Positions 1,107-42,377 are shown, counted from the first letter of the stretch. The stretch: 64,000 bases of DNA from Verrucomicrobiia bacterium (GCA_035541135.1 DATKNW010000043.1:17755-81754), one strand, 5' to 3'. Notes: generated by a model from the sequence alone, not told the origin. Program-made: numbers and translations.

Positions 1107-1280
1107 TTACGGCAAGTTCTGATTCACGCTCGACAGCGTGTTATTGATGTGGGTGCCGAGACCCTTCAGCACCAACACGGCCACGACGGCGATCAACGCC
1201 AGAATCAACGCATATTCCACCAGGCTCTGCGCCTTGCGCGACTTCAGGCTCGCATACAGTTTTCGGAGAGTTTTCTTCAT
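1107..1280 (-). CDS. flp: Flp/Fap family type IVb prepilin.
   Basis: The product MKKTLRKLYASLKSRKAQSLVEYALILALIAVVAVLVLKG... contains the Flp motif (xxLVEYALIxALIAVV) and is 57 aa long. AAGGAGG lies 6 nt upstream of the ATG at 1280, so the upstream M codon at 1298 would include the RBS. The gene is in a tad-locus context with cpaB. Confidence 0.8.
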   Translation of the reverse strand: MKKTLRKLYASLKSRKAQSLVEYALILALIAVVAVLVLKGLGTHINNTLSSVNQNLP

Positions 1281-1353
1281 CACATTCACCTCCTTCATCT
1301 GGTTTCCTTCATATCTTCTGACCCGACGGACTTGTTTCGTGACGACTCAACCG

Positions 1354-1369
1354 AGCAGCATATGTGCCA
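1354..1369 (-). promoter_or_regulatory. Candidate sigma-54 (-24/-12) promoter for flp.
   Basis: The minus strand reads TGGCACatatgcTGCT. GG and GC are spaced exactly as in the consensus TGGCACG-N4-TTGCW, with one mismatch in the -12 box. It lies about 75 bp upstream of the flp ATG and is followed by an AT-rich stretch (1380-1450) that could hold an IHF or enhancer region. A sigma-54 EBP gene is present in the window. Confidence 0.4.
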
Positions 1370-1571: not shown

Positions 1572-3155
1572 TCAATGCAACTCGTACAGTGTCATTCCTG
1601 ACTCCACCACCAAGCTCGCCCCACGTACATCAAAGAAATGCCCAAAAATGTCCGGTGACAGGCCCGGCGGTACGGCTAGAAGCGCGTGTTGGCCATCGGC
1701 CGCTCCGAAATCGCTTTGGAAAGTTGTCTTCCAGTGATATCCGACCCAGGTCTTCCTCCCGAGATCATCCGCGGACGAAGCGTCCGAGAACAGAAGAACG
1801 TTCCGATACTCCGGCAAGTGGTATTCGAACTGGCGAAATCCCCAATAGAAGCTTTCGACGCCGTGACAGATGACGACGTTGGCGGGCGCCCATTTACGTC
1901 GAATCGCTTGGAAGCACGCAGATAGATCAGCGTCATGCCTCCGTATTTCCACGCCCGTCAGGGGCATACCCGCCAGCAGTCGCTCCGCCCAGACGGGCTG
2001 GAGGACAAATATGATCGAGTTGATCGCCACGACGAACCCAAGCACGCCGCAATGGGTCCAGCCTCGACGGACGCGGAGCAAACCCGACAGGCGGCCTGAG
2101 TGCCGAACGAGGCCGAGAGCGGCGAAGATGGCAACAGCCGGAAAGAAATTGAGCGCGTACCCGGGCATCGTCACATACATGAGCAGCCAGAACAACACCA
2201 TCGGGGCGATCCACAGCGCGAGCAGGTGGAACTGAAGTCTGTGCGCTCGACGAAGATGGTCCTTGGCCGTCGGCTTCTCGAAGACGCTCCACAGGATGAA
2301 CTCGATTACAAAAATGAGCGCCGCGGCCAACAGCCCCACCCAGGTGGCTGCGCTGAGATTGCCGATATTCGTCCAGAACGCTTTCAGCCCTCCTCCGCCC
2401 CAGACAGTTTGGTGGGCATCAAACTGGTTCTTGAGCCGAAGCAAGTGAATGTAGGAGGCGAAACCGCCCGCCGACCTCATGGTGGGTATGAACCAGAACA
2501 GTGAAAAACTAACTGTCAATGCAATCGCGCAGAGCAACTTCCACCCGCGCTGTTGCTCGGCCCGCCACAGGACATACAGACCCAACGGAATCAGGCAGGG
2601 TGCGGTTTGTTGGCGAACGCCCGCGACCGCCGCGAGCAGAGCGGCCAGCAGCACCGTTTGAAACCAGGTCACTCTTTGCCGGATGGCTCGCCAGCCGAGA
2701 AGCACGAAGCTTGTGACTAGGGCGCTGTCCACGATTGTTGTCAACGCGACTTCACTGTGGAACCAGCACAACGGGCTGGTGAGCAGAATCAGTCCGGTGG
2801 CCCATCCGCATTCGCGGCCAAACATCGAGGTCGCCAGCAGATAGCCCGCCGCCACCAACCACGCCCCCGCAATCACACTCAGCCAGACCAGCGCAGCGTG
2901 CGGTTCGCCAACCACGAGATTTACCAGGCGGCCCAGCACCACGTACAAATAGAAACCGGGAGGTTGCGGTTGGCCGTCGCGAAGATCGTACTCGCCAAGC
3001 GCCAGGGCAAACTGGGCGCTGTCCCAGTGGTAGGCGAGCTGACTGCGAAATGGGATTCGCACGGCAAGGGCGACCACGAGGACGAGCGCGACTGCCGCCC
3101 CGTCCCATCTTGTCCACCGGCCTACGTCCGTTTGATTCTCGTGACCGTCAATCAT
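1572..3155 (-). CDS. Polytopic membrane glycosyltransferase, GT-C fold (GT39/PMT_2 / ArnT-like), paralog A.
   Basis: About 527 aa, multi-TM N-terminal region, and a YHWDSAQF loop motif shared with the next gene. The start is chosen at the MIDGHENQ Met rather than at the upstream alternative start. Confidence 0.55.
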   Translation of the reverse strand: MIDGHENQTDVGRWTRWDGAAVALVLVVALAVRIPFRSQLAYHWDSAQFALALGEYDLRDGQPQPPGFYLYVVLGRLVNLVVGEPHAALVWLSVIAGAWLVAAGYLLATSMFGRECGWATGLILLTSPLCWFHSEVALTTIVDSALVTSFVLLGWRAIRQRVTWFQTVLLAALLAAVAGVRQQTAPCLIPLGLYVLWRAEQQRGWKLLCAIALTVSFSLFWFIPTMRSAGGFASYIHLLRLKNQFDAHQTVWGGGGLKAFWTNIGNLSAATWVGLLAAALIFVIEFILWSVFEKPTAKDHLRRAHRLQFHLLALWIAPMVLFWLLMYVTMPGYALNFFPAVAIFAALGLVRHSGRLSGLLRVRRGWTHCGVLGFVVAINSIIFVLQPVWAERLLAGMPLTGVEIRRHDADLSACFQAIRRKWAPANVVICHGVESFYWGFRQFEYHLPEYRNVLLFSDASSADDLGRKTWVGYHWKTTFQSDFGAADGQHALLAVPPGLSPDIFGHFFDVRGASLVVESGMTLYELH

Positions 3156-3237
3156 TGTTGCGCGACCTCGGCGGCCTTCGGTGGCATCTGAGTTTCTTCT
3201 CACGTGCCAGGCAATTCGCCGCGAATCTCGCCGCTCG

Positions 3238-4821
3238 TCACCCCGATGGTTTCATGTCCTGCGCTGGAAGAAGATACAGGTTTCCGGTTATGCGTGATAC
3301 CGCTCTCATGCTGGCGAGCGACAGGTATGGGGCGAAGATTTCGACGCTTTCGCCGGGCGGCACGAACAAGACCACGCCCGTTTTGTTCTGCAGATCGGGC
3401 TTGTCCACGAACCCAAGGCGGCCATCACGGACGCGCCAGATCGGTTTGCCCGGCGGATGCAGCGCGGTTGAATCCAGCACGAGTTGGTACTGCTCGTACT
3501 CCGGCAGGCAGACCTGGAAATGGCGCAAACCCCACAGGTAATATTCTTCGGAAAAACAGATCACCACGTCCTTTGGCGAAAATCTCTGCCGAACGTCCGC
3601 GACGATCCCGGACAACTGCGAGTCGTGCCGGGCAATCTCCGCCGAGGTTCGCGCCATGCCGAAGAAGACCCGGTCCCACAGCGCCGGCCAGGCCAGAAAT
3701 GAAATCACATTCACGGCGCCAATGGCCACGATCAGGAGCGAACGGTATCGGGCGTTCTTCAGAGTGGCAATCACGATTGCCGTCAGCAGAAACAACGCTG
3801 GCAGATAACCCAGCACGTAACCCGGTTGTTTCGTAAACCCAATCACGGTCCCGAAGATCACCATGGGCACAACCCATGCCGCCAGCACCGCCAGCGCGAG
3901 GGCGTGTTGACTGTTCCACAGTCGCTTCTGTTCGGTCGTCATTCGCGCCGCGCGGTACAGAAGCGCCGCGATCCATATCACCGCGGCCAGCATCAGACCG
4001 TTCAGGCAATAACCCGTGGTGTTCGCCACATTCTGCAGGAGCGCATCCCAGCCGCCACCCCAGAGAGTCGAGGAGGCGTTGACGAACGCGTGGCGCCGCA
4101 CGATCGTGAGATAGGCTCCCCACCCGCCCGAGACCCGCAGCATCGGCACGAACCACGCCAGTCCCAACCCAACGGCTGTAACGGCGGCCACCGCCAGCTT
4201 GGCGAGTCGTGCCCGTTGGAACTGCCAGAACGCGAACGCGACCAGCGGCACGAGCTCCGGCACGCTCTGCTGTCGAACGCCCCCCAGCAGCGCCAACAAC
4301 GCCCCGATTGCCACGGCGTCCCACCACGTGCCCCCGCGTTGCACGGCCAGCCACAATTCGAGCACGATGGCACAGACAAGGAAACTGTCTACGACGTACG
4401 TCAGGGCCACGCAACTGTGAAACCACACTTGCGGACTCGTCAACCCCATCACGGCAGCCGCCGCGCCCGCTCGGCGACCTGCCATCACGGTTCCCAGCAG
4501 ATAGAGCACCGCGGATAGTGCGCTGCCGAATACGATGCTGATCCACACCAGGCTGGCGTGCGGGTCGCCAATCCAGTTGTTCACGAGTCGCCCCAACAGG
4601 ACATAGAGGAAATAGCCCGGCGCGTGCGGCTGACTCAGACGAATATCAAATTGACGGATCGCCAGGACGAACTGCGCGCTGTCCCAGTGATACACGAGCC
4701 GGCTGCGGAACGGGACGCGCATCGCCACCGCCACAACAAACAACAGGAAGGCAACGACTCCGTCCCGCATCTGGAGTTGCTGGCCGGCACCGCGACCGCC
4801 GGCCTCAACGTGAGCGCTCAC
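3238..4821 (-). CDS. Polytopic membrane glycosyltransferase, GT-C fold (GT39/PMT_2-like), paralog B.
   Basis: Clear paralog of 1572..3155: RVPFRSRLVYHWDSAQF aligns with RIPFRSQLAYHWDSAQF. The GTG start at 4821 overlaps the upstream gene's stop (GTGA), which suggests translational coupling. Confidence 0.55.
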   Translation of the reverse strand: MSAHVEAGGRGAGQQLQMRDGVVAFLLFVVAVAMRVPFRSRLVYHWDSAQFVLAIRQFDIRLSQPHAPGYFLYVLLGRLVNNWIGDPHASLVWISIVFGSALSAVLYLLGTVMAGRRAGAAAAVMGLTSPQVWFHSCVALTYVVDSFLVCAIVLELWLAVQRGGTWWDAVAIGALLALLGGVRQQSVPELVPLVAFAFWQFQRARLAKLAVAAVTAVGLGLAWFVPMLRVSGGWGAYLTIVRRHAFVNASSTLWGGGWDALLQNVANTTGYCLNGLMLAAVIWIAALLYRAARMTTEQKRLWNSQHALALAVLAAWVVPMVIFGTVIGFTKQPGYVLGYLPALFLLTAIVIATLKNARYRSLLIVAIGAVNVISFLAWPALWDRVFFGMARTSAEIARHDSQLSGIVADVRQRFSPKDVVICFSEEYYLWGLRHFQVCLPEYEQYQLVLDSTALHPPGKPIWRVRDGRLGFVDKPDLQNKTGVVLFVPPGESVEIFAPYLSLASMRAVSRITGNLYLLPAQDMKPSG

Positions 4822-6332
4822 AATCCCTCCTTCGGCCGATACACGTAGTAGAAGTCATCGGATTTGCTGAACGGTTCGGGCACCACGTACCGAGCATCCA
4901 GGTGGTATCGCTTGCGCATCGGGATCAGCCACCGCGGCGGGAACGCCCACACGGGCCGGCGAGAATCGTCGAGAGGAGTCTTGGATATGATGGCAGCGAG
5001 CTCGCCCTGTTCGATTCTGCGCAACAAGTCCGTATCGTCGAATCTGCCAATGCGTTGCATGTGGGCGAACAAACTCGTGTCGATCATGTACGGTGTCCGG
5101 CCGGATCGCACGGCCAGGTACGGCTCCTCGGAGAGCACCGGTCCATCAAGCTTGCCGACGTATGTTGCCAGTTCCTTCCAGGACGTATTGTCACGCGACG
5201 ACAGGAGAATTCGCCAGCCTTGCTCGAATGAAAGCGCGACCGAGAGCCCCAGTGCCGTTGCGAGCCACCAGATATGCGCCCGCCGCACAACGTCGTTCGG
5301 TGAATACGCCAACAGGTCGTCCGTCAACACTCCGGCGAGGACGCACCCGGCGGCAAATGGCTCCAGATAATGGTTGGTCCACGTGCCGTAGATTCGCGAG
5401 CGCGCGAACGCCAGCCCGAGGCTGACAACAAAGTATCGCTTCCAAAGCCCGACACCGGGGAATCGGGCCGGGGCCGCACAAGCGATCGTCGCCCCGAAGA
5501 ACACGACGGCTCCCATCGTCAACGCGGTCAGCAACAACGACCATGTCCACCACCACGACGGGGCTTCCGCCAGACTGTAAAACACATTCAACGCAAACCG
5601 GCCGTTCGTCGCGTGCTGCGCTGCGATCGCCACCGCTGCCAGCACCGCGCCCCACGTCGTTGCCGCGGCGATGGCCCGCCCGAGGCGTCTCCGGAGGATT
5701 TCTTCGAGCGAAATCACGACCAACGGGGCGAAGACGGTGTGTTTGTACATCGTCCCCACGATCAGTAGCGCGACAGACCCTGCGAGATGGATCGGCGCCC
5801 GACCGCGCTGATACACCCACAATGCCGCCAGCGAGAAGAATAATGCCGCGGCATCCGGCCGAAACGAGTTCGCCCATTCCTGTCCCAACTCGCTGGCCCC
5901 CCACAGCAACGTGGCCAGCAGCGCCGCCCGTCGGGAACAACCCACCTGTCGCGCCAACAGGAATATTGCAACGCCGATTCCAACCCAAAACGGGTAGACG
6001 CTCCATCGTGCCGCCACAATCATTTCCAGCCAGGTTCGGGCCGGTCGGGCCACCCAGGCTGATGACCAGTAAAACAACGGCATGTAGGCGGTGATCGCGT
6101 AGGGTGGCCGCGTGTAGTCCAGATAGAGCGGCCCGCCGTTGTGCAGGCGACTCACGGCAAACAGAGATTCGCTCTCGGTCGGGGAATTCTCCCCGTCAAA
6201 CCCGATTCGTCCGATCAGCAGCCCTTGCCGCAGCGCGGTCAACACGACCAACACGGCCAGAAGAATCCCGATCCACTTCCGTATGCCGGCTGCCGAAAGC
6301 GTTCCGCGCGCGCGTTCCACGGACTGCCGCAT
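4818..6332 (-). CDS. Polytopic membrane protein, putative GT-C glycosyltransferase of unassigned family.
   Basis: 504-aa ORF with more than 10 predicted TM segments and uniform codon usage. It is the second gene of a four-gene minus-strand membrane-protein operon. Confidence 0.45.
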   Translation of the reverse strand: MRQSVERARGTLSAAGIRKWIGILLAVLVVLTALRQGLLIGRIGFDGENSPTESESLFAVSRLHNGGPLYLDYTRPPYAITAYMPLFYWSSAWVARPARTWLEMIVAARWSVYPFWVGIGVAIFLLARQVGCSRRAALLATLLWGASELGQEWANSFRPDAAALFFSLAALWVYQRGRAPIHLAGSVALLIVGTMYKHTVFAPLVVISLEEILRRRLGRAIAAATTWGAVLAAVAIAAQHATNGRFALNVFYSLAEAPSWWWTWSLLLTALTMGAVVFFGATIACAAPARFPGVGLWKRYFVVSLGLAFARSRIYGTWTNHYLEPFAAGCVLAGVLTDDLLAYSPNDVVRRAHIWWLATALGLSVALSFEQGWRILLSSRDNTSWKELATYVGKLDGPVLSEEPYLAVRSGRTPYMIDTSLFAHMQRIGRFDDTDLLRRIEQGELAAIISKTPLDDSRRPVWAFPPRWLIPMRKRYHLDARYVVPEPFSKSDDFYYVYRPKEGL

Positions 6333-6365
6333 AACACAGCCGCCGCATCAAATGCGACACCAGAA

Positions 6366-7598
6366 TTACGGGTTCCGCTCGCGGACGAGGAAGAAGCAGA
6401 ATCCGATCAGCCCGTAGAGGGGCAGGTAATTCAGCAGGATCATCAGAAGGGGAGATCCGCCCCAGAACGATTTGTCCCATGGACCTTCAGAATTCGTCGC
6501 GATGAGGAGCGCGGAGAATACGAGCAGGCGCCGCCAGGAAGACGATGCCGCGAGCCGGGCCGCGGCCAGTCCAACCGGGAAGATCAACTGGACGAAGTAG
6601 TACGCGCACCCGTAGACCGTGAGGGTCGCCGCGCACAAGAGGGAAAACTGCAGGTCTTCATCGCCGTCCGTTGTAACGCAAAACAAATACGCCGCCGCGA
6701 CCGCCGCCAACCCGATGCTGCTGCCGGTCATCCACAATCCCCGGCCCGGCTCAACCGACGCGGTTCCACTGCGCAACGCCTGCGCCAAATTGATGACGAA
6801 CGACGACAGGGTGAAGTTGAACGTGTGGCCGACCGCCCACCAGCGGATGATGGGAGGAGCGACCTCGTAGAAGTCGGCCCACAGGCCGGGCCCGGTCACG
6901 AGCACGATCGCGCCGGCGCCCAACGCCAGCGCGGCGGCGGTGCGCAGACGTTTCCACATCGGGCGTTTGCTGCGCCAAATGAACCACGGCAAGAACGCCA
7001 GCGGATACATCTTCACCAGTCCCGCCAAGAGCACGAGCCAGCAGGCCCGGTCTTCCTTGCCGGCCTTGTGCCAAGCATACGCCGCCAGCAACGCCGCCGT
7101 CAGCGTCAGGTTCTCGGGGGAAAACGCAAAGTGCCACAACACGGGCGACGAGGACACGAACCCGGCGCAGAGGAACCACCAACCTCGTTCGCTGAGCTGG
7201 CCCTTCAGCAGATGCCTTGTCAGCCACAGGACCGCCACGAGGCTGACGGCTTCGATGGCCACCCGCAGCCAGAAGGCCGGTCGCTGCGCCAGCATGGCCA
7301 TCGGCACCCACAACCACAGCGATACCGGCGTGCTCGTCGCCACCTCCGGGCGCAGAAACACGGGCTTCTCTGTTCCCGCCGTCGCGGGAGTTCGGTAGGG
7401 ATTCTGGCCTTCCCACAGCAGCCGGCTCGTAATGTAGTAATGATCGAAGTCCGGCGCGAACGCGCGCGACGGCAACATCTCGACGATCCAGACGACGTGG
7501 ATCAACGCGATCACCGCCGCGCCCACAGCCAGCACGGGAGCCAGCACGGGACTGCGCCACATTCGATCCGGTCCGATCATTCTTCGCGGCCCATGCAA
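6366..7598 (-). CDS. GT87/DUF2029-like membrane mannosyltransferase-type protein.
   Basis: About 410 aa, multi-TM, with a KMYPLAFLPWF motif characteristic of the DUF2029/GT87 family (PimE-like polyprenol-phosphate-mannose dependent transferases). It is the first gene of the minus-strand operon. Confidence 0.55.
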   Translation of the reverse strand: MHGPRRMIGPDRMWRSPVLAPVLAVGAAVIALIHVVWIVEMLPSRAFAPDFDHYYITSRLLWEGQNPYRTPATAGTEKPVFLRPEVATSTPVSLWLWVPMAMLAQRPAFWLRVAIEAVSLVAVLWLTRHLLKGQLSERGWWFLCAGFVSSSPVLWHFAFSPENLTLTAALLAAYAWHKAGKEDRACWLVLLAGLVKMYPLAFLPWFIWRSKRPMWKRLRTAAALALGAGAIVLVTGPGLWADFYEVAPPIIRWWAVGHTFNFTLSSFVINLAQALRSGTASVEPGRGLWMTGSSIGLAAVAAAYLFCVTTDGDEDLQFSLLCAATLTVYGCAYYFVQLIFPVGLAAARLAASSSWRRLLVFSALLIATNSEGPWDKSFWGGSPLLMILLNYLPLYGLIGFCFFLVRERNP

Positions 7599-7982
7599 AA
7601 TCTAATAACAGGGCACCCGGACAACTCCAAGCGGAAATCTCCCGGACCTCCGGGCCGGCCCCATCGAAGTGCGAGACCGGGGCGCCCACCGCTCCCCCCT
7701 GCCGTCCCCACCGGCCCCCGCGCTGGCGTCCCTGCTCCGACAGGAGTCGCGAGTCCCTCTCGGACTTGCGGTCGTTTGCCCCGTCGTCCCATCAACCATC
7801 CGCCATCGACCATCTCCAGCCCGTCCCCTCATTCCTCTTGCCCATCCCGCCACCGCGACGCATTCCCTCCGGTGTAGCAACGTCTCTGCGAGACGTTCAG
7901 CTTTCCGCCTTTGTCCCACTCGTGCTTTCCTGTGTGCACTTCGGCGTTGAACATTCGGTCACGGCTCCGTAATCTGCCGCTG

Positions 7983-9533
7983 ATGGCGGCAAACGGAAAC
8001 GGTCCCGACTCACAGCCGCGCGTGCAGACGGACTCCGACGCGGAATCCTCCGGCGGCATCCTGCCGTGGGTGATGCCGACGTTGACGCAATGGCTCTGGC
8101 TGGTGATCCTGCTGATTCTGCTGGCCAATCCCTGGCGCACCATGATGGCCGCGAGCGACGGCGACACCTGCATGCACTGGCGCGTCGGCGAATACATGCT
8201 CGAAACCGGCCGCCTGATCCGTGCCGACGTGTTTTCCCACACCCGCTACGGCGCCCCGATCATCTCCAAGGAGTGGCTGTCGGAAATCATCTTTGCCCTG
8301 GCGGGCCGCGTGTGGGGATTGTACGGCCTGTGCGTCGTGACCGCGCTGTTGATCGCCACGACGTTCGCCCTGCTGCATCGCCAACTGGTGCGCGAGAGCG
8401 GGAACCACGCCGTCGCGATCTTTGTGGCGTTCCTCGCTGCGTGGGCGGCCTGTGCGCACTGGATGGCGCGTCCGCATGCGTTCAGTTTCCTCCTGGCGGT
8501 GTTGTGGGTCGACGCCCTGCGTCGCTTCGAGCGCGGCGAATCGGCCCGGCGCCTGCTCGTCACGCTCGGCGCGTTGACGCTGCTGTGGGTCAACCTGCAC
8601 GGCGGCTACCTGGCCGGGTTCATCACGCTGGGGATTTACTGGATGGGCGCGCTGATCGAGCTGCCGCTGGCCCGCGCCGACCAGAACCGATCCAGCGCCG
8701 TCCGCCGCAAGCTGGCGGTGCTGACCGGCGCGATCGCATTGTGCGGTGTCGTCTCGCTGCTGAACCCGAGCGGGTATCAGCTCCACCTTCACAACCTTCA
8801 TTTTCTCCGTTCCTCGTACCTGACCAACTGGCTGGCGGAATACGCCTCGTCCGATTTTCATGCGTTTGACTCGCACGGATTTCTTGCCTGGCTGGCGTTG
8901 ACGTTTTTGACGCTGGCCCTGGCGCGGCCACGGCTGTCGCCGGCGTCAGCATTGCTGCTGATCGTGTGGACGTATTTTGGACTGTACGCCGTGCGGAACA
9001 TTCCGCTGACGGTTGTCTTCGTGGCGCCGATCCTGGCGACAGCACTGGCCGATGCCGCGCCGGCGTGGGCGCGACGATTGTCCGACCGCATGCGTGAGAC
9101 CGATGAAATGTCGCGGGCCTGGCCACTGGTGGGCGCCGTGGCCATCGTCGCCGTCGTGGCATTCCCCCGGCCGACCGAGATGCCGGCGAAGAAATGGCCC
9201 GTCGACGCCGTTGCCTACATCCACCAGCATCCCGATCGGTTCACGGGGAATATGTTCAACAACTACGTGTGGGGCGGCTACCTGCTCTACGCCCTGCCCG
9301 AGCACCGCGTGTTCGTGGATGGCCGCACCGATTTCTACGGCGAATCCCTGATCCGCCAGTACGACGACACGTCGCTCCTGCACACGAACTGGCAGCAACC
9401 CCTCGCGCAGTACCACGTGGATTGGACGCTCATGCCCGTCGATCACCCCTTGAATCTCGCCCTCGCCTTGCTCCCGGGCTGGCATTGCGTCTATTCCAAT
9501 GAGGTGGCCGCCGTGTTTTGCCGACGACCGTGA
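7983..9533 (+). CDS. Tandem paralog 1 of an unclassified ~520-aa polytopic membrane protein family with GT-C-like architecture.
   Basis: Architecture is about 11 TM segments followed by a ~120-aa C-terminal soluble domain. The first loop carries SDGDTCMHW...FSHT...EWLSE, conserved in all five copies. The start is ambiguous between 7911, 7983 and 8073; 7983 matches the N-terminal length of the other paralogs. Confidence 0.6.
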   Translation: MAANGNGPDSQPRVQTDSDAESSGGILPWVMPTLTQWLWLVILLILLANPWRTMMAASDGDTCMHWRVGEYMLETGRLIRADVFSHTRYGAPIISKEWLSEIIFALAGRVWGLYGLCVVTALLIATTFALLHRQLVRESGNHAVAIFVAFLAAWAACAHWMARPHAFSFLLAVLWVDALRRFERGESARRLLVTLGALTLLWVNLHGGYLAGFITLGIYWMGALIELPLARADQNRSSAVRRKLAVLTGAIALCGVVSLLNPSGYQLHLHNLHFLRSSYLTNWLAEYASSDFHAFDSHGFLAWLALTFLTLALARPRLSPASALLLIVWTYFGLYAVRNIPLTVVFVAPILATALADAAPAWARRLSDRMRETDEMSRAWPLVGAVAIVAVVAFPRPTEMPAKKWPVDAVAYIHQHPDRFTGNMFNNYVWGGYLLYALPEHRVFVDGRTDFYGESLIRQYDDTSLLHTNWQQPLAQYHVDWTLMPVDHPLNLALALLPGWHCVYSNEVAAVFCRRP

Positions 9534-11077
9534 ATGCCGTTTCGCCCAACGCCGCCGCGCGGTCGACCAACTCTCCGCGCGCCCCGCTCCCTTCGCTCAG
9601 CGCCATGCTCTGGGTGATCCTGTTCCTCGGGCTGAGCTTCACCAGCGCCCGTGTCGTGATCGTCAGCGGCGACAGCGATCCGTCGCTGCATCGCCGGCTC
9701 GGCGAGTGGATGATCCAGCACCGGGCGATTGTCGGAGAGGACAACCTGCTTCACACATACCACGGCTCGGCTTCAACAATGGAATGGCTCAGCGAAGTCA
9801 TCATGGCCGCGCTTGGCAACTGGCTCGGCTGGAACGGTGTCGTGCTGCTGGCTGCGGCCCTCATCGCCACCTGTTTTTGGCTGCTGCACCGGCAACTGCT
9901 CGGCGAAGGCAGCGACCCGGTAACGGCGACCATTCTCGTGCTCGTGGCCATGCTCACCTGCTCGATGCACTGGCTGGCGCGACCGCTGTTGTTTACGCAC
10001 CTGATGACAGTCGTGTTCGCCTGGCAACTGCGCTGGTTTCAACGCGGCCGCGTCACGTCGCGACGGTTGTTCACGCTCCTTCCACCGTTGATGGCGCTGT
10101 GGGTGAATCTGCATGGCGGATTTCTCATGGGTCTGATCCTGATCGCCATGTACGCCGTCGGCGAAGTCGTTGATTCGTGGTCTCATCGCTCCTCGGTCGA
10201 ACGATTCAAACCGCTGGCCGCGCTGTTCGTGATCTGTTGCGCGGCGACCCTGGTCAACCCGGTCGGCTGGAGATTGCCGTGGGAGATTATGAGCTTTCTG
10301 AGGACCCCCGAACTGTCGACGCTGACCACGGAATTCCTGTCTCCGAATTTTCACACGGTGGGCATGCACGGCTTTCTGCTGCTCTTGTTGCTTCTGGCGG
10401 TCGGCTTGATTGTGATTCGCCCAAAAGCGACGGCGACCGACGTTGTCCTGATCGGCGGATGGGGTTATCTCGCGCTGCTCTCGGCACGAAATGTGCCCAT
10501 CTTCGCGCTCGTGGTGACACCGATACTCGGTCAGTGGTTTGCGGAATTCACGCGGGACGGTCAGGACCGTCTTTGGGTCCGCCGATACCGTGAATGGACG
10601 GAGAGAATGCCTGTCGCATCGCGGAGAATCGATGTCGCCATCATGCTCGCAACGATCATCGCCGCGCTGGCGGTCATGGCCAAGCCAGCGCTCGCCGGCG
10701 GCGCTCCGCTCATCGCCACCGATTATCCGTCCACCCGTTATCCCATGGCGGTCGTCGATTACCTTCGCGCGCACCCCGACGCGGTCCACGGTGAAATGTT
10801 CAACTACTTCCTCTGGGGCGGCTACATCGAATTCGCTCTTCCGTCGCGAAAACCGTTTATAGACAGCCGTCAGAATTGCTATGGCATCGATGTGTTCCAC
10901 GAATTTCGCACCGCCGACCAACCGAAGCCGGGATGGGAAGCCGTGTTCGCAAAGTATCATGTCGGCTGGACGATCCTGCCGGTGCAACATCCGCTCAATC
11001 GCATCCTGGAGCTCAGCCCCGGATGGACCCGCGTGTACTCGGACCGGCTAACGCTCGTATTCTCGCGTGTGTCATGA
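9518..11077 (+). CDS. Tandem paralog 2 of the same membrane protein family.
   Basis: The loop reads SGDSDPSLHRRLGEWM...EWLSE and the C-terminus reads ...SPGWTRVYSDRLTLVFSRVS. The probable TTG start at 9518 overlaps paralog 1 by 16 nt. Confidence 0.6.
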   Translation: MPTTVNAVSPNAAARSTNSPRAPLPSLSAMLWVILFLGLSFTSARVVIVSGDSDPSLHRRLGEWMIQHRAIVGEDNLLHTYHGSASTMEWLSEVIMAALGNWLGWNGVVLLAAALIATCFWLLHRQLLGEGSDPVTATILVLVAMLTCSMHWLARPLLFTHLMTVVFAWQLRWFQRGRVTSRRLFTLLPPLMALWVNLHGGFLMGLILIAMYAVGEVVDSWSHRSSVERFKPLAALFVICCAATLVNPVGWRLPWEIMSFLRTPELSTLTTEFLSPNFHTVGMHGFLLLLLLLAVGLIVIRPKATATDVVLIGGWGYLALLSARNVPIFALVVTPILGQWFAEFTRDGQDRLWVRRYREWTERMPVASRRIDVAIMLATIIAALAVMAKPALAGGAPLIATDYPSTRYPMAVVDYLRAHPDAVHGEMFNYFLWGGYIEFALPSRKPFIDSRQNCYGIDVFHEFRTADQPKPGWEAVFAKYHVGWTILPVQHPLNRILELSPGWTRVYSDRLTLVFSRVS

Positions 11078-12636
11078 TCGACGCCACCCGCCATGAGTTG
11101 CCCGCCGAGCCACATCGCTGGTGGCTGCCATCGCTGAGCCAGTTCATCTGGGTCGTACTGTTTCTCAGCATCATGCTGACGGACTGGCGACAGACGCTCA
11201 TCAACGCGGATGGCGACCCGTGCTGGCATTGGCGGCTCGGCCAGTGGATGATCGAGCATCGCGCCATTATTCGCAGCGATGTGTTCTCCCACACGCAGCC
11301 CGGCGCCCTGATCGTCACGAAGGAGTGGCTGAGCGAGGTGATCTTCGCCGCTGCGGGAAATGCTCTGGGCTGGAACGGCGTTGTGCTTGTCGCCGCCGTG
11401 TTGATTGCCACGACGCTGGCGCTCTTGCACCGCCAACTGGTGGCTGAGGGAAACGATATCGTCGCATCCACGTTCGCCGTCCTGCTGGCCGGCGTGGCCT
11501 GCATGGTTCACTGGCTGGCGCGACCGCATTTGTTCACGCTGCTGCTCGTGGTCATCTTCGCCTGGCAATTGCGATGGTACGACCGCGGTCGAATCAGCGC
11601 GCGCCAATTGTGGATCCGTCTCGTGCCGCTGACGGCGTTGTGGGCCAATCTTCACGGGGGTTTTCTCACGGCTTTTGTGCTGATTGACATTCACTTCGTC
11701 GGCAACTACCTGCGCATCAAAAACACCGACGCTCCGGCCCGAGCGGCGGTGCGCAACAAATTGATCGTGCTCGCCGCTCTTGCCGTCGCCTGCGCGCTGG
11801 CGACGCTGCTGAATCCAAACGGCTGGAAGCTGCACCGGTATCTCATCAGTTTTCTGTCGGTGGCGAACCGATCGCGTTTCACGAGCGAGTGGAGTTCCGC
11901 CAATTTCCACTTCAGCGGACTGCGCGGCTTTGAATGGCAACTGTTGCTTTTGGGATTTTTGCTGATCGTGGTGAGGCGGCCATGGGCGGCCACCGATCTT
12001 CTGCTTGTGGGGGTTTGGCTGTGGTCGGCACTGTACGCGATGCGCAACGTGCCCATCTTCGCGCTGATCGTGACGCCGGCTTTCGCCGAGCATTTGTCGG
12101 CGGCGTTTCGGGAAGCCCGCAACACGATGTGGGGGCGCCGGCTCTGGGAGCTTTCAGAGGACGTGAGCGCGGTGAACCGAGCCTCGGGCGGCGGCGGTCT
12201 GATTGCCGCGGTCATGATCGTGATGATTATCGTCGTGGCCAGGCCGGTGATTGCGAATGGCGCGCCGTTGCTCGAAACGCGGATTTCGTCGCGTCGATTC
12301 CCGTGCGAGAGCGTTGATTATCTGCGCGCGCACCCGCAGATCGTGCACGGCGGAATGTTCAACGAGGACGGCTGGGGCGGATACTTTCTGCTTTATTTGC
12401 CGGAACGGAAGGTCTTCATCGACGGACGCGACGATTTTTATCCCGAGGCATTCTTGCAGGAGTTTACGGAGGTCTCTCACCTGCGGCCCGCTTGGGAAAC
12501 CGTGCTGGCAAAGTATCGCGTCGGCTGGACGATCCTGCCGGCGCAGCATCCGCTCAATCGAATCATGGAACTCAGCCCCGGCTGGACCCGCGTGTACTCC
12601 GACCGGTTGACGCTTATATTCTCGCGCGTGTCATGA
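11074..12636 (+). CDS. Tandem paralog 3 of the same membrane protein family.
   Basis: The ATG at 11074 overlaps the stop of paralog 2 (ATGA). The N-terminus MIDATRHELPAEPHRWWLPSLSQ is nearly identical to the start of paralog 4. The loop reads NADGDPCWHW. Confidence 0.7.
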   Translation: MIDATRHELPAEPHRWWLPSLSQFIWVVLFLSIMLTDWRQTLINADGDPCWHWRLGQWMIEHRAIIRSDVFSHTQPGALIVTKEWLSEVIFAAAGNALGWNGVVLVAAVLIATTLALLHRQLVAEGNDIVASTFAVLLAGVACMVHWLARPHLFTLLLVVIFAWQLRWYDRGRISARQLWIRLVPLTALWANLHGGFLTAFVLIDIHFVGNYLRIKNTDAPARAAVRNKLIVLAALAVACALATLLNPNGWKLHRYLISFLSVANRSRFTSEWSSANFHFSGLRGFEWQLLLLGFLLIVVRRPWAATDLLLVGVWLWSALYAMRNVPIFALIVTPAFAEHLSAAFREARNTMWGRRLWELSEDVSAVNRASGGGGLIAAVMIVMIIVVARPVIANGAPLLETRISSRRFPCESVDYLRAHPQIVHGGMFNEDGWGGYFLLYLPERKVFIDGRDDFYPEAFLQEFTEVSHLRPAWETVLAKYRVGWTILPAQHPLNRIMELSPGWTRVYSDRLTLIFSRVS

Positions 12637-14195
12637 GCGACGCCATCCAGCACGAACCGTCCGCCGAACCGCGTCGATGGTGGCTGCCATCGGTCAGCAC
12701 GATGATCTGGTTGGTGTTCTTCCTCGCGATCATCTTCTCGCCGAACCGCGCGATGCTGGTGGCTTCCGATAGCGACCCGTGCTGGCACTGGCAACAGGGC
12801 AACTGGATGCTCGAGCACCACGCCGTGCTGCGGACCGAAATATTCTCCCACACGCGACCCGGCGCGCCGCTGGTGGATCTGTGGTGGCTGAGCGAGATCG
12901 TGACCGCCGTTGCCGGCAATCTGCTCGGGTGGAACGGCATTGTGCTCGTGACCGCGGCGCTATGCGCCACATCGGTGTGGCTGCTGCACCGGCAACTGCT
13001 AGCCGAGGAGAACGAAATCGTGTTGTCCACCGTGCTTACGCTTCTCGCCGCGAGCGCGTGCGCGATTCATTGGCTGGCCCGGCCGCACCTGGCCACGATC
13101 CTCCTCTTCATCGCGTTTGCCGGGCAATTGCGATGGTTCGCGCGGGGACGGACGACGGCGGGCAAATTGATGGTCTTGCTGCCTGTATTAACGGCGCTCT
13201 GGGCCAATTTGCATGGCGCGTTCGTGTTTGCGTTCGTGTTGATTGGCGTCTACTGGCTCGGCGCGGTTGTAAGTTGGATGATCGCGCCACAGGACCGACG
13301 GCCCGGATTCCGTCATCAAGTGGCTCTTCTAACCGGGCTGGGGTTGGCTTGCCTTCTGGCTTCGTTAGTCAGTCCGAACGGCTGGCGACTCCCTCTGCAG
13401 GTTTTTCATTATACGAGAAGCCCGTTGCTGATGGGTCTGGCCGTGGAATATCTCCCACCCAATTTTCATGATCCGGGAAATCTGCCGCTGCTTCTGATTT
13501 TCGCGTTGGTGCTCTCAGTGCTGGCGGTCGCGTGGCCGCGGCTGACCGCGACAGATGGTCTGTTGTTGGTTGTCTGGGCGGTGCTGGCGCTGCGGATGGC
13601 GCGGAACGGGCCGCTGTTTGCGCTCGCGGCCACGCCGATTCTTGCGGAGCATTGGAACGCGTATCTGCGCGCGGCCTCACCGTCTCGCGCGATGCAACGG
13701 TACCGGGCGCTGTCGGCGGGTCTGACGTCGGCCAATCGGATGGCGGGGGCTCGCGGACTGCCGGCGCTGGCGGTGCTGGCTATCGCGTTGGTCATGGCCA
13801 AGCCGCAACTTCTCGGCGGCCGGCCCCTGTTGGCCACCGAACTTCCTCCGCAACGGTTTCCCGTTGCCGCCGTCGAATTCCTCCACCGCTCGCCGGACGC
13901 GGTCCATGGCGAGATGTTCAACGAATACACGTGGGGCGGCTATCTCATCTGGGCGTTGCCGGAGCGGAAGGTGTTTATTCATCCCAACCTCGATGTTTAT
14001 GGAGAAGGGTTGGTGAGGGAGTTCGTCGAGGTGAACGAGGCGACAAATGATTGGGAAGGCATCCTGAAGAAATACAACGTCGGTTGGACGATCCTTCCGA
14101 CGGACCACCGCTTGAGTCGTCTTCTGGCGAAGCGCGCGGACTGGAAACTCGTGTACGCCGATTCCGTCGCGGCGATTTACGGGAGGACGCCATGA
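12633..14195 (+). CDS. Tandem paralog 4 of the same membrane protein family.
   Basis: The ATG at 12633 overlaps the stop of paralog 3 (ATGA). The N-terminus is MSDAIQHEPSAEPRRWWLPSVST and the loop reads SDSDPCWHW. Confidence 0.7.
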   Translation: MSDAIQHEPSAEPRRWWLPSVSTMIWLVFFLAIIFSPNRAMLVASDSDPCWHWQQGNWMLEHHAVLRTEIFSHTRPGAPLVDLWWLSEIVTAVAGNLLGWNGIVLVTAALCATSVWLLHRQLLAEENEIVLSTVLTLLAASACAIHWLARPHLATILLFIAFAGQLRWFARGRTTAGKLMVLLPVLTALWANLHGAFVFAFVLIGVYWLGAVVSWMIAPQDRRPGFRHQVALLTGLGLACLLASLVSPNGWRLPLQVFHYTRSPLLMGLAVEYLPPNFHDPGNLPLLLIFALVLSVLAVAWPRLTATDGLLLVVWAVLALRMARNGPLFALAATPILAEHWNAYLRAASPSRAMQRYRALSAGLTSANRMAGARGLPALAVLAIALVMAKPQLLGGRPLLATELPPQRFPVAAVEFLHRSPDAVHGEMFNEYTWGGYLIWALPERKVFIHPNLDVYGEGLVREFVEVNEATNDWEGILKKYNVGWTILPTDHRLSRLLAKRADWKLVYADSVAAIYGRTP

Positions 14196-15724
14196 ACCCG
14201 CGTTATCGCTGGCTGCCAACCATCGGACTGTCACTGTGGCTCGTCTTTGTCTTGGGCCTGACACTCTCGCCCTGGCGGTTGGTGATGATCAATGCCGATG
14301 GCGATACGTGCCTGCACCGGCAGATCGGCAACTGGATGATTCAGCATCGGGCGATTATGCGGGCGGACCCGTTTTCCCACACGCACGCCAGCGCACCGAT
14401 TGTGACGATGGAATGGCTGAGCGAATTGGCGTTCGCCATCGCGGGCAATGCACTCGGTTGGAACGGCGTTACGCTGCTGTCAGCGATGATGATCGCTGCG
14501 AGCCTGTGGATCCTGCAACGCCAGATGCTCTCCGAAGGATCAGATGTGATTGTGGCGACGGCACTGGCACTGTTGGCTGGCGACGCCTGCTCGATGCACT
14601 GGCTGGCGCGTCCACACGTGGTCTCATTCGTGTTCCTGGCCTGGTTCGGCTGGCAGTTGCATGCCTTCGAGCGTGGCGCGATCAGCCCGCGACAATTATT
14701 GGTGCGGCTGATTCCGCTGACGGTGTTGTGGGTCAACCTGCACGCCGGATTCCTCACCGGACTCATGCTGATCGGCGTCTGTTTTGCGGGGGCGGCGGTC
14801 GGGCTTTTCGTCGACGCTGACGAACACCGGGCCGCGGCTCGGCGCAACATGCAAACGCTGGCGCTGGCAGGGTTCGGTTGCTGCCTGGCCTCGCTGGCCA
14901 ACCCGAACGGCTGGGGATTGTACCGTTATCTGGGGAACTTTTTTCAACACTCCTCCCTCGTCGGCTTCATCAGCGAGTTTCGCTCACCGAGTTTTCATTC
15001 TCCGAGCACGAATGGATTTACGTTGCTGCTGGCCGCACTGGCTCTGACGCTCATCGTGGCGCGCCCCCGCCTCCGGCCCACGGAACTTCTGCTCATCGGC
15101 TGGAGCGGCTTTCTCGCCCTGCGCTGGGTCCGCAACATCCCGCTGTTTGCGATTGTGGTGACACCGATCATGGGCCGGCACCTGTCGGCGGCGTTACCAG
15201 AACTACGGGGTCGATGGGCCGAGCGCTATCGGAGAATCTGCGACGATCTTGGCCGGCTGAACCGGGCCGCCGATGGCCGCTGGCTGGCCGGCGTGGCGCT
15301 GGTTGCGCTCGTTGTCGCCTTCGCCAAACCGCATCTCGTCGGCGGGGCGCCCCTGGTCGAGACCGATCTGCTGACCAACCGGTTTCCCGTGGCGGCGGTG
15401 AATTTCGTTCGGCAGAATCCCGGCGCGGTGTCGCGGGAAATGTTCAACGATTACGGCTGGGGCGGCTACCTCGACCTCGCCCTGCCCGAGCACAAGGTCT
15501 TTGTGGACGGGCGTAACGATTTCTTCGGATTGGCCGTGATCCAGGACTTCGACGACGTCAACAAGGTGCGGCCCGACTGGGATGCTGTCTTGCGGAAGCA
15601 TCAGGTCGGCTGGACGATTCTGCCGCAGGCGCATCCGCTGAACGCGCTGCTGTCGCTGGAGACGAACTGGACCCTCGCCTATGCCGATGACGTGGCCGTC
15701 ATCTACACCCGCAAACTGGAGTGA
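14192..15724 (+). CDS. Tandem paralog 5 of the same membrane protein family.
   Basis: The ATG at 14192 overlaps the stop of paralog 4 (ATGA) and is preceded by GGGAGG. The loop reads NADGDTCLHR...MEWLSE. Confidence 0.7.
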   Translation: MNPRYRWLPTIGLSLWLVFVLGLTLSPWRLVMINADGDTCLHRQIGNWMIQHRAIMRADPFSHTHASAPIVTMEWLSELAFAIAGNALGWNGVTLLSAMMIAASLWILQRQMLSEGSDVIVATALALLAGDACSMHWLARPHVVSFVFLAWFGWQLHAFERGAISPRQLLVRLIPLTVLWVNLHAGFLTGLMLIGVCFAGAAVGLFVDADEHRAAARRNMQTLALAGFGCCLASLANPNGWGLYRYLGNFFQHSSLVGFISEFRSPSFHSPSTNGFTLLLAALALTLIVARPRLRPTELLLIGWSGFLALRWVRNIPLFAIVVTPIMGRHLSAALPELRGRWAERYRRICDDLGRLNRAADGRWLAGVALVALVVAFAKPHLVGGAPLVETDLLTNRFPVAAVNFVRQNPGAVSREMFNDYGWGGYLDLALPEHKVFVDGRNDFFGLAVIQDFDDVNKVRPDWDAVLRKHQVGWTILPQAHPLNALLSLETNWTLAYADDVAVIYTRKLE

Positions 15725-22365: not shown

Positions 22366-22414
22366 GTGCAGAACTCCCTCGGTTATCACGCCCTGCAATC
22401 GTTTGCGGCCCGGG

Positions 22415-27003: not shown

Positions 27004-27005
27004 GG

Positions 27006-42326: not shown

Positions 42327-42377
42327 GAAACCTCCGCGCATCCACTACGGCGGCGCGGAACCACGCAACGCACGACG

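Follow-up and report, generated by a model that had tools for sequence, protein, structure and literature searches.

A five-gene array of predicted GT-C membrane proteins belongs to a family linked to Tad/Flp pilus loci

Many bacteria rely on Tad/Flp pili for adhesion, biofilm formation and surface sensing. Suspicions that the Flp pilin is modified go back about two decades, and we know of no enzyme assigned to this modification. In other systems, AglB glycosylates archaeal pilins and archaellins, and tandem mycobacterial Emb and Aft arabinosyltransferases, which form homo- and hetero-oligomers, build arabinan. For Aggregatibacter, glycosylation of the Flp pilin has been suggested, with no known enzyme (PMC12307814). 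TfpW, encoded in the P. aeruginosa group IV pilin loci, is a GT-C-type D-arabinofuranosyl transferase that puts a lipid-carrier-linked sugar on Ser/Thr residues of a type IVa pilin (bioRxiv 10.1101/2020.04.19.049825). Pilus glycans are also relevant to phage resistance, which glycosylated type IV pili confer in Pseudomonas (bioRxiv 10.1101/150227). A literature search for GT-C enzymes linked to Tad pili found no paper.

Here we analyze a 64,000-nucleotide stretch of DNA from a Verrucomicrobiia bacterium (GCA_035541135.1 DATKNW010000043.1:17755-81754), referred to as the window. It contains five genes that encode paralogous integral-membrane proteins of modeled GT-C fold, for which glycosyltransferase activity is predicted.

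The five-gene array and its history

The five genes lie head to tail on the + strand, between 7983 and 15724, and two of their junctions are spanned by copies of a DNA repeat.

7983 (ATG)..9533, + strand: paralog 1 (P1), 516 aa, orthogroup G1, the most divergent copy
9530 (GTG) or 9518 (TTG)..11077, + strand: paralog 2 (P2), 515 or 519 aa, orthogroup G2
11074..12636, + strand: paralog 3 (P3), 520 aa, orthogroup G3, the protein used for the AlphaFold model
12633..14195, + strand: paralog 4 (P4), 520 aa, orthogroup G4
14192..15724, + strand: paralog 5 (P5), 510 aa, orthogroup G5
10927..11174, + strand: junction-spanning repeat, copy 1 (P2 end and P3 start)
12486..12733, + strand: junction-spanning repeat, copy 2 (P3 end and P4 start)

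The ORFs and a full-length alignment bear out an initial sequence-only reading of the window, which had proposed five tandem paralogs of ~520 aa on one strand; the proteins (510-520 aa) share 35-51% pairwise identity, with a mean column identity of 59%. P3 is 100% identical to the NCBI entry "hypothetical protein VMV72_11420" from a Verrucomicrobiae MAG, and P1 scores 622 bits against the family HMM. The P1 ORF opens at TTG 7911, and an independent gene call (Logan contig) gives a 516-aa protein starting at ATG 7983. A base-by-base check confirmed the ATGA stop/start overlaps reported at 11074, 12633 and 14192. The 16-nt overlap reported between P1 and P2 is obtained with the TTG start at 9518, whereas the in-frame GTG at 9530 gives a 4-nt GTGA overlap like those at the other three junctions; the P2 start was placed at one of these two codons because one gene caller's choice, a later Met, falls downstream of a conserved LPSLS motif.

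The array is old. In the orthogroup tree the five copies fall into five orthogroups, G1-G5, and their gene order is conserved in related genomes, which rules out a recent amplification of the array. Copies have been lost via recombination at the repeated gene junctions. The two copies of the 248-nt repeat are 81% identical, while other intra-array repeat families reach 60-76%, and in related arrays the same leader sequence moves along with the junction. Because this repeat spans two junctions, P2 and P3 have near-identical C-termini and P3 and P4 near-identical N-termini. The sequence-only reading had assigned both likenesses to P3 and P4; this is correct for the N-termini, but the shared C-termini (SPGWTRVYSDRLTL[VI]FSRVS) belong to P2 and P3. 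Its suggestion of recent duplication or gene conversion likewise applies as recent exchange within the junction segments only, and not to the array as a whole. A search for acceptor-specificity residues found group-specific positions among the paralogs at 12 of ~520 sites, six of these 12 being in the C-terminal domain, a number too small to be interpreted.

Fold, topology and conserved residues

The family comprises ~28,800 representative clusters at 50% identity and, as the sequence-only reading had held, is unclassified: Pfam and NCBIfam contain no family match for the five paralogs, none of which scored above the gathering score of the PMT, PMT_2, TMEM260, GT87, DUF2079 or YfhO profiles. 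Pfam/NCBIfam scans of 90 diverse and ten distant members found no family, and no named GT-C Pfam family recurred among the 90 (YfhO, 2/90 at E = 5.7). When PDB sequences were searched by HMMER, profiles built from 5 and from 117 sequences returned noise only. Thus, no sequence-level relationship to any characterized GT-C family was detectable by Pfam, NCBIfam, PDB or hhalign comparison. An hhalign comparison with the family of the neighboring TMEM260-like GT-C genes was not significant (E = 0.2). The same alignment pairs D48 with an invariant loop-1 Asp of the TMEM260-like proteins.

The AlphaFold model of P3 (pLDDT 90.9, pTM 0.90), compared with the PDB by Foldseek, gave 19 matches at E ≤ 1e-3, all 19 of them GT-C enzymes (best, DPY19 at 3e-8), and the similarity to solved GT-C enzymes extends across the transmembrane core. 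Further structural neighbors are AftA, AftD, AftB, ArnT, ALG12 and ALG9. The model supports the GT-C-like fold proposed earlier, and also the proposed architecture of a cytoplasmic N-terminus, ~11 TM helices and a soluble C-terminal domain. Helices were counted from the model because crude hydropathy segmentation was too noisy. Topology is supported by K/R-rich loops on the predicted cytoplasmic side, which favor an N-in orientation, and by conservation that is concentrated in the periplasmic loops, the cytoplasmic loops being almost unconserved. In the model the last helix is followed by a periplasmic α/β domain of ~125 aa of the STT3/AglB type, which has the STT3 central-core fold and whose closest structural matches are the peptide-binding domains of the protein-glycosylating STT3/AglB and DPY19.

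The D-x-D that the sequence-only reading placed in the first extracytoplasmic loop lies just past TM1 (helix 21-35), 11-13 residues on, and is conserved family-wide (D46 in 112/117 and D48 in 103/117 sequences). The conserved residues that face the periplasm are D46-x-D48, H52, D69 and E84 in loop 1, H146, R150 and H152 in loop 2 (HWLARPH), and N192, H194, E272 and R324 beyond; each of the key acidic, His and Arg positions is retained by 103-117 of the 117 diverse members compared, and Arg150 and Arg324 on the periplasmic face are invariant. The reported loop-1 motifs, [SA]D[GS]D[PT]C.H...G.WM followed by FSHT and EWLSE, are present, except that P2 reads LLHT and P4 WWLSE. W-W-L-P, the N-terminal motif that the sequence-only reading gave for the five proteins, is not universal: across the family only its Pro is kept (P19, 113/117 sequences).

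The C-terminal domain raises the question of a closer tie to oligosaccharyltransferases. The family might consist of divergent STT3/AglB-type enzymes, of archaeal origin along with Tad, which would move a preassembled lipid-diphosphate-linked glycan to Asn residues of Flp pilins. An archaeal derivation of Tad pili, as proposed in PMC10710030, would fit such a history. Some 40 residues past the last TM helix, where STT3 has WWDYG, the conserved family motif is [WF]-G-[GD]-Y (W434 in 97/117, G435 in 109, G436 in 96, with D in 16, and Y437 in 109), so that 16/117 members read W-G-D-Y, and P5 gives a weak match to TIGR04154 archaeo_STT3 (E = 0.004; 15.5 bits against a cut-off of 450). WWDYG as such is absent, however, and the likeness is one of position, from which equivalence is presumed. 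Pfam STT3 (PF02516) matched neither the five paralogs nor the 90 members at E ≤ 10, the profile searches of the PDB likewise gave no STT3/PglB/AglB sequence, loop 2 lacks the second acidic D/E-x-D motif, the modeled TM helices number 11 rather than 13, and no archaeal members occur among the 80 best genome loci. Moreover, N-x-S/T sequons are not conserved among Verrucomicrobial Flp pilins and are depleted in the tails of Flp pilins encoded next to family genes (17/55, against 28 ± 3.1 in shuffles); because of this depletion, N-glycosylation at sequons was rejected as the main reading. We regard an STT3/AglB-type oligosaccharyltransferase acting on Asn residues as highly improbable.

Linkage to Tad/Flp pilus loci

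The genes that surround the array point to a pilus context.

2..658, - strand: rcpC/cpaB (Tad pilus alignment protein), cut by the window edge; Pfam RcpC 84 bits plus SAF domain, phmmer E = 1e-17
1107..1298, - strand: flp (Tad) pilin gene; Pfam Flp_Fap 34.5 bits against a gathering score of 32.2
1354..1369, - strand: sigma-54-type -24/-12 element (TGGCACATATGCTGCT) upstream of flp, one mismatch to consensus
1572..3203, - strand: TMEM260-like/PMT_2-like paralog of the 3238-4821 protein, 527-543 aa; weak Pfam PMT_2 match
3238..4821, - strand: TMEM260-like/PMT_2-like GT-C protein, 527 aa; weak Pfam match, present in 12 loci
4818..6332, - strand: membrane protein, possible GT-C, 504 aa; weak DUF2079-like match (21.5 bits, below cut-off)
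6366..7598, - strand: GT87-family GT-C glycosyltransferase, divergent from the array; Pfam GT87 E = 2e-17, 64 bits
15732..17129, - strand: sigma-54-dependent response regulator of the NtrC/PilR type, converging on P5; Pfam matches to Response_reg, Sigma54_activat and HTH_8

The predicted mature pilin of the window flp is QSLVEYALILALIAVVAVLVLKGLGTHINNTLSSVNQNLP, and a 57-aa version of this Flp is on record as Flp_Fap. Some 6.5 kb separate the array from flp, which is on the other strand, and the rest of the tad operon falls past the window edge. A matching sigma-54-type site occurs at the same distance from flp in one relative (L005) and is missing at most Flp genes of other phyla; the element in the window is tentative because such sites are no commoner window-wide than expected by chance. 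The response regulator is conserved beside the array in 12 Verrucomicrobial sources, window counted, and the GT87 gene in 14 loci, while homologs of the 4818-6332 protein occur in 5. The two TMEM260-like proteins match one another with E = 5e-101 to 5e-102, depending on the query, and in the Tad operons of two loci (L020 and L026), homologs of the 3238-4821 protein score above the TMEM260-like and PMT_2 cut-offs. Together, the five paralogs and four genes on the divergent strand make nine candidate GT-C genes. The Tad/Flp context had been absent from the sequence-only reading.

Across the family, 82 sources were compared (81 fetched loci and the window). Tad genes were found in 47/82 and Flp-like ORFs in 35, counts that are not independent since the 80 genome loci were those that best matched two peptide patterns, with Acidobacteriota predominating among them; 35/82 loci had no Tad gene within 10 kb, many of these being on short contigs. 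In 26 sources a family gene has a Flp ORF no more than 600 nt away, and in the Tad/Flp loci the family gene often stands directly upstream of flp. The neighbors identified by Pfam are TadZ, TadA, TadB/C, RcpC, secretin and TadE/G, and the linkage recurs in or beside the tad operons of unrelated lineages in five phyla, Acidobacteriota, Desulfobacterota, Chloroflexota, Planctomycetota and Verrucomicrobiota. When members at ~30% identity were picked arbitrarily, 3/4 were in tad operons; one of these three carries fused TPR repeats at the TadD position, and one sampled member lies in a different sugar-modification cluster, not in tad. TMEM260-like/PMT_2 GT-C genes co-occur with the family in the same operons across phyla, and in 8 loci a small GT2 gene adjoins the family gene; in other systems, polyprenyl-phosphate sugars are made by small GT2 enzymes of similar type. 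We class the family as an accessory component of Tad/Flp (type IVc) pilus loci.

Such an accessory need not be an enzyme. PIG-U and GAB1 are non-catalytic GT-C-fold subunits of the GPI transamidase, and the family proteins could by analogy have kept the fold as inner-membrane structural or assembly factors of Tad, serving, for example, as anchor or pilin chaperone, or partnering the secretin pilotin. The conserved position beside core tad genes and the TadD-like TPR domain fused to one member at the TadD position would suit this role. By contrast, the loop-1 D-x-D and several His, Glu and Arg residues on the periplasmic side hardly vary among members down to ~27% identity, as is typical of an active site, and other GT-C and GT2 genes occur in the same operons. 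To our knowledge, the well-studied tad systems of Aggregatibacter, Caulobacter and Pseudomonas assemble pili without such a protein. We consider a purely structural role quite improbable.

A proposed role and its relation to known systems

With flp and rcpC in the window and Tad linkage across the family, there is therefore a concrete candidate acceptor, and we lean towards the view that the GT-C paralogs are Tad-linked periplasmic transferases that act on the Flp tail or another Tad pilus component. Their most likely function would be polyprenyl-phosphate-sugar-dependent periplasmic glycosylation of the Ser/Thr-rich Flp tail (Ser + Thr = 28% of Flp tails) or of such a component. Cytoplasmic enzymes would load a sugar onto polyprenyl phosphate, the lipid-linked sugar would be flipped to the periplasmic face, and the array enzymes, with the four neighboring candidate GT-C proteins (GT87, the TMEM260-like pair and the DUF2079-like protein), would transfer sugars there to the C-terminal tail of the Flp pilin or to another Tad component. 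The invariant periplasmic Arg150 and Arg324 and the small GT2 gene adjoining the family gene in 8 loci would be indirect pointers to such a lipid-linked donor. The five translationally coupled paralogs might differ in the sugar or linkage that each adds or in the site that each modifies, and they may work as hetero-oligomers. A precedent for a GT-C enzyme that glycosylates a pilin encoded beside it is TfpW (bioRxiv 10.1101/2020.04.19.049825).

One alternative concerns the acceptor. A 40-residue pilin has few sites for nine candidate GT-C enzymes, and active GT-C enzymes with a non-pilin acceptor could instead make a periplasmic or surface glycan (an adhesive polysaccharide, lipoglycan or other envelope glycoconjugate) co-regulated with Tad pili for attachment, in the manner of the tandem mycobacterial Emb and Aft enzymes and their arabinan. 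The GT87 family is known from mycobacterial lipoglycan synthesis and is represented in the window cluster; AftA, AftD, AftB, ArnT, ALG12 and ALG9, the structural neighbors, use glycan or lipid acceptors, and some family members are found outside Tad loci, in sugar-modification clusters. However, the family gene sits right beside flp genes in the 26 loci noted above, one member carries the TPR fusion at the TadD position, and the C-terminal domain best resembles peptide-binding domains. Polysaccharide export genes (Wzx/Wzy, ABC transporter, OPX) are also lacking among the conserved neighbors, and we consider a glycan acceptor rather unlikely.

Returning to the pilus component as acceptor, a more specific and tentative possibility is that this STT3/AglB-like GT-C family is the missing Flp-pilin glycosyltransferase, maybe archaeal along with Tad, and that in Verrucomicrobiae it expanded into a fixed array of five genes, whose products, with the four other candidate GT-C proteins, would build a complex pilus glycan wholly in the periplasm. 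This unnamed GT-C family, tied to tad operons across phyla, is a concrete and testable candidate for the Flp-modifying enzyme. If the proposal is true, the protein-glycosylating GT-C enzymes gain a new family, and thousands of "hypothetical proteins" from Acidobacteriota, Verrucomicrobiota, Chloroflexota, Desulfobacterota and Planctomycetota gain a function; the structural tie to STT3/AglB bears on the evolution of oligosaccharyltransferases and of the archaea-derived Tad system.

Among known systems, STT3/AglB/PglB (GT66) proteins resemble the family in the D-x-D of the first extracytoplasmic loop and in the aromatic-Gly-(Gly/Asp)-Tyr found where STT3 has WWDYG (a presumed equivalence), but OST subunits have 590-970 aa compared with ~520 aa here. 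The C-mannosyltransferase DPY19 (GT98) and the protein O-mannosyltransferases PMT/TMTC/TMEM260 differ in that the family has no Pfam Dpy19, PMT, PMT_2 or TMEM260 match; TMTCs bear C-terminal TPR repeats, as do some family members, and TMEM260-like genes are operon partners of the family. The Emb/Aft enzymes share tandem paralogous GT-C genes in one operon (EmbC-EmbA-EmbB), periplasmic C-terminal domains and, for AftA, AftD and AftB, structural proximity. However, Emb proteins are much larger (~1,100 aa), and the Emb/Aft enzymes act on arabinan chains, have no link to pili and belong to Pfam families, none of which the Tad-linked family matches. The closest functional analogue of the proposed role would be TfpW: it too is polytopic, its loop 1 and its large C-terminal domain are periplasmic, and its gene stands beside the pilin gene. 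The acceptors of TfpW are type IVa pilins that include a globular domain, whereas the Flp pilins here have 40-60 aa, and TfpW is a single gene where the array has five.

The five-gene array and its history

An ORF scan found five consecutive + strand ORFs within 7911-15724, encoding the GT-C-like membrane proteins P1 to P5:

7983-9533, +, P1
9530-11077, +, P2
11074-12636, +, P3
12633-14195, +, P4
14192-15724, +, P5

The proteins align end to end (mean column identity 59%, 82 invariant columns) with pairwise identities of 35-51%, establishing that the five tandem paralogs described in the sequence-only reading are real; the loop-1 motif described there is found in all five copies of the alignment. 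The P1 start is most likely ATG 7983, giving 516 aa, because an independent gene call in another assembly has this same length. ATGA overlaps are located at 11074 (P2/P3), 12633 (P3/P4) and 14192 (P4/P5). The 16-nt overlap earlier assigned to the P1/P2 junction holds with the mechanical ORF start, TTG 9518, but not with the alternative in-frame GTG 9530, which creates a GTGA overlap matching the other three junctions. These 4-nt overlaps suggest coupled translation of the five genes and hence similar protein amounts, which would suit sequential action or hetero-oligomers. Pmt1-Pmt2 and EmbA-EmbB are known hetero-oligomers.

A neighbour-joining tree of 49 family proteins placed the Verrucomicrobial copies in five clades that correspond to array positions 1 to 5 (orthogroups G1-G5), with single-copy Verrucomicrobial genes as sister to G1. 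Gene order is conserved among the window and the fetched loci L003 and L016, which harbor five copies each, while L001, L005, L006, L007 and L009 contain four, lacking either G3 or G4, and L011 and L013 contain two. Because P3 orthologues are 64-80% identical, compared to 35-51% between paralogues, the array is old and stable rather than recently amplified. A recent duplication, proposed earlier from the ends of P3 and P4, does not hold for the array as a whole. In related assemblies, some array copies are split into two ORFs (L004 6294-8493; L008 8303-10001 and 11290-13093), and are either frameshifted pseudogenes or assembly errors. Alignment positions that are fixed within each orthogroup but vary across at least three groups number only 12, and six lie in the C-terminal domain.

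Gene conversion, also proposed earlier, finds support in junction segments but not for the array as a whole. A 248-nt DNA repeat spans two junctions (10927-11174 and 12486-12733) with 81% identity, compared to 60-76% for the other repeat families of the array. In L001 and L006, which are without G4, the G5 gene has the 'MTDAT...PPRRWWLP' leader otherwise found in G3 and G4, the expected product of unequal recombination between repeated junctions. As for the near-identical termini ascribed to P3 and P4, the N-terminus is indeed common to both, but the C-terminus, SPGWTRVYSDRLTL[VI]FSRVS, is shared by P2 and P3.

Fold and periplasmic conservation of the family

The family is huge: at a clustering level of 50% identity, a P1-P5 profile matched 28,826 cluster representatives with E <= 1e-3 and 5,155 with E <= 1e-30. 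It is without a Pfam or NCBIfam model. Pfam and NCBIfam searches with P1-P5 (E <= 1) gave no match except noise-level ones, 90 diverse members revealed no recurring Pfam family (E <= 10) and the only NCBIfam matches of ten distant members were to the TPR repeats of a fused form, in agreement with the original description of the family as unclassified. Profile searches of PDB sequences with the family found nothing. The source names seen for members are all 'hypothetical protein', save that forms with fused TPR repeats appear as 'tetratricopeptide repeat protein' or 'Flp pilus assembly protein TadD'.

P3 was modelled from an alignment of 45 sequences (pLDDT 90.9, pTM 0.90). In the model, TM1 (residues 21-35) leads into a first periplasmic loop that is long and includes two short helices. 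Ten further TM helices come next, the last being TM11 (375-393), which is preceded by a cytoplasmic amphipathic helix at 352-370 and followed by an alpha/beta domain (394-520). A Foldseek search of the PDB returned 19 matches at E <= 1e-3, all 19 of them GT-C enzymes, in the order DPY19 (3e-8), STT3, AftA, AglB, ArnT and ALG12; non-GT-C folds reached only E > 0.4 and probability < 0.1. Structural comparison of P3 gave values of 16.7 with STT3B (431 residues aligned), 16.5 with DPY19, 15.2 with ArnT, 14.6 with AglB, 13.8 with PglB, 13.1 with ALG12, 13.0 with AftD and 12.5 with Pmt4. As 3vu0, the crystal structure of the isolated AglB C-terminal domain, was among the structural matches, residues 394-520 were modelled separately (pLDDT 92.8) and a second structure search was run. 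The matches of the whole model and of the C-terminal domain place P3, as modelled, in the GT-C branch with an STT3-type C-terminal domain; structure prediction thereby confirms the GT-C assignment made from sequence.

The predicted cytoplasmic loops are K/R-rich. Across 35 aligned orthologues and paralogues, almost no columns conserved in all five groups fall within the cytoplasmic loops, while such columns make up 56% of periplasmic loop 2, 22% of loop 1 and ~30% of the periplasmic ends of TM5 and TM10. Sixteen residues are retained across 117 diverse members with identities down to 26%.

Residues retained among 117 family members
D46, 112/117; D48, 103/117; H52, 115/117; D69, 106/117
E84, 106/117; H146, 108/117; R150, 116/117; H152, 111/117
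W190, 117/117; N192, 116/117; H194, 115/117; E272, 116/117
R324, 117/117; Y437, 109/117; D450, 108/117; W504, 117/117

In the model all sixteen are on the periplasmic side, the pattern of an extracytoplasmic active site, in agreement with the extracytoplasmic placement of the D-x-D motif proposed initially. A non-catalytic role of the proteins we consider improbable.

Tad pilus genes near the family and in the window

We clustered the ORFs neighbouring family genes at 79 loci from GTDB species genomes and identified them by Pfam. The commonest neighbours were Tad pilus genes: TadZ/CpaE (37 loci), TadB/TadC (35 and 31), TadA/CpaF (34), RcpC/CpaB (31), the secretin RcpA/CpaC (31) and TadE/G-like pseudopilins (10). 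Of 82 sources, made up of the window and 81 fetched loci, 47 contain at least one Tad component and 35 a Flp-like pilin ORF, which lies within 600 nt of a family gene in 26; roughly 40% of members are located away from tad loci. Usually the family gene comes first, followed by one to three flp copies and then by rcpC, the secretin gene, tadZ, tadA, tadB and tadC. The linkage is found in five phyla: Acidobacteriota (many loci), Desulfobacterota (Geobacter/Geomobilimonas L026 and L030, including the cultured Geomobilimonas luticola JCM 17780 and Geobacter sp. AOG1; Desulfobacterales L039), Chloroflexota (L028, L031), Planctomycetota (an anammox member, L020) and Verrucomicrobiota (L011, L012, L055). 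In an independent check of four arbitrary representatives at ~30% identity, three were inside tad operons, one of them the 917-aa TPR fusion described below, and the fourth was in a different sugar-modification cluster. That the acceptor is another glycan appears unlikely.

In the Acidobacteriota locus L086, a 917-aa family member with C-terminal TPR repeats (P0239, 10001-12754) follows tadC and a DUF192 gene, in the usual place of TadD, and is annotated as 'Flp pilus assembly protein TadD' in one source. In several phyla, tad operons repeatedly have a small DUF192 (COG1430) gene between tadC and the GT-C genes (L026 6326-6727; L086 9557-9931; L089 7008-7439), with homologues at 10 loci by phmmer. 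In Geobacter, the family gene shares an operon with genes for a PTPS_related membrane protein, a methyltransferase and a small GT2 enzyme. At 8 loci a homologue of this GT2 gene adjoins the family gene. In three-component glycosylation systems, polyprenyl-phosphate sugars are made by small GT2 enzymes of this type. The Geobacter-type tad operon of Geomobilimonas luticola (L026 8265-9983, 12296-14317) carries extra genes, encoding PTPS_related (PF10131), a 673-aa protein without Pfam match, a class I methyltransferase and a small GT2, and this set looks like a larger pilus-linked modification module.

In the window, the genes left of the array are on the - strand, divergent from it, and a regulator gene is directly downstream:

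2-658, -, rcpC, cut by the window edge (84 bits)
1107-1298, -, flp pilin (Pfam Flp_Fap 34.5 bits, above gathering score)
1354-1369, sigma-54-type element TGGCACATATGCTGCT upstream of flp
1572-3203 and 3238-4821, -, TMEM260-like/PMT_2-like GT-C paralog pair
4818-6332, -, DUF2079-like membrane protein (weak Pfam match)
6366-7598, -, GT87 glycosyltransferase (E = 2e-17)
15732-17129, -, NtrC/PilR-type sigma-54 response regulator

Homologues of the paralog pair are inside tad operons of Geobacter, an anammox bacterium and L089. In the relative L011, the secretin gene and tadZ come next on this strand, and the remainder of the window's tad operon is probably just outside the window. The response regulator is conserved beside the array in 12 Verrucomicrobial sources including the window, and the sigma-54-type element is kept at the same spacing in the closest relative with flp in range. 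A promoter reading of this element is tentative, because sigma-54-type matches are no commoner window-wide than in shuffled sequence. One-mismatch elements are also present at 667-682 (-), upstream of rcpC, and 17218-17233 (-), upstream of the response regulator.

Several related Verrucomicrobiae carry, immediately 5' of the array and in the same orientation, a gene for a membrane protein of 712-728 aa with a fused spermidine-synthase-like domain (L001 4703-6889; L003 4784-6922; L016 ~4562-6886); it is not in the window, where the GT87-P1 gap is 385 nt. Eight more window genes encode an N-terminal polytopic membrane domain with C-terminal TPR repeats:

17884-20136, 36831-38669 and 38674-40299, +
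40320-42341, 44797-46791, 46819-48900, 48897-50957 and 50973-52661, -

The eight are homologous to one another (E = 4e-19 to 5e-64); the membrane domain matches PMT_2 in five, three of which pass the gathering score. These eight TPR fusions and about nine genes at 1572-15724 make the 64-kb window very rich in GT-C candidates.

A glycoside hydrolase block (20380-31834 and 53055-56808, both -) encodes GH44, GH3, GH94 (cellobiose-phosphorylase-like), GH31 with PA14, GH95 and two GH51-like alpha-L-arabinofuranosidases, and suggests a plant-polysaccharide-degrading lifestyle. Three right-handed beta-helix (Pel9A-like) proteins are encoded at 35816-36772, 42378-43382 and 43427-44275 (all -); an identical 16-mer, TGTAACTGCCGTTGCT, at 42608 and 43657, common to two of these genes, points to local duplication.

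Proposed role and known systems

Taken together, linkage to Tad/Flp loci and an STT3-type C-terminal domain move these proteins from unclassified GT-C paralogs to a specific, testable hypothesis: gene neighbourhoods and models make Tad-pilus-directed glycosylation by the family somewhat probable. The donor used by the enzymes at the periplasmic face would be a polyprenyl-phosphate-linked sugar, and the acceptor either the C-terminal tail that the Flp pilin exposes or some other component of the pilus. Among 55 Flp candidates encoded beside family genes, the tails contain 20.5% Ser, 7.8% Thr and 12.3% Asn. N-x-S/T sequons are depleted in them (17/55 compared to 28 +/- 3.1 in shuffles), which argues for O-linked over sequon-directed N-linked modification. 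That the proteins are true N-oligosaccharyltransferases is very improbable.

The structures nearest to P3 are the protein-glycosylating GT-C enzymes STT3/AglB/PglB and DPY19. Four tested features separate the family from GT66: it belongs to another sequence family, it has neither WWDYG nor the acidic motif of loop 2, and its helix number is different. A [WF]-G-[GD]-Y motif, conserved in the family ~40 residues past the last TM helix and in the W-G-D-Y form in 16 of 117 members, sits where WWDYG would be in STT3-type enzymes and could be its remnant.

In the published work, of which our coverage is incomplete, we found no GT-C enzyme tied to Tad pili. The Caulobacter Tad pilus shows no modification (PMC10710030, which also summarises the case for an archaeal origin of Tad systems), and Flp glycosylation has been suggested in Aggregatibacter, as cited in the introduction of PMC12307814. 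The nearest functional analogue of the role proposed here is TfpW, a GT-C-type enzyme encoded beside a type IVa pilin gene, which arabinosylates the pilin (bioRxiv 10.1101/2020.04.19.049825).
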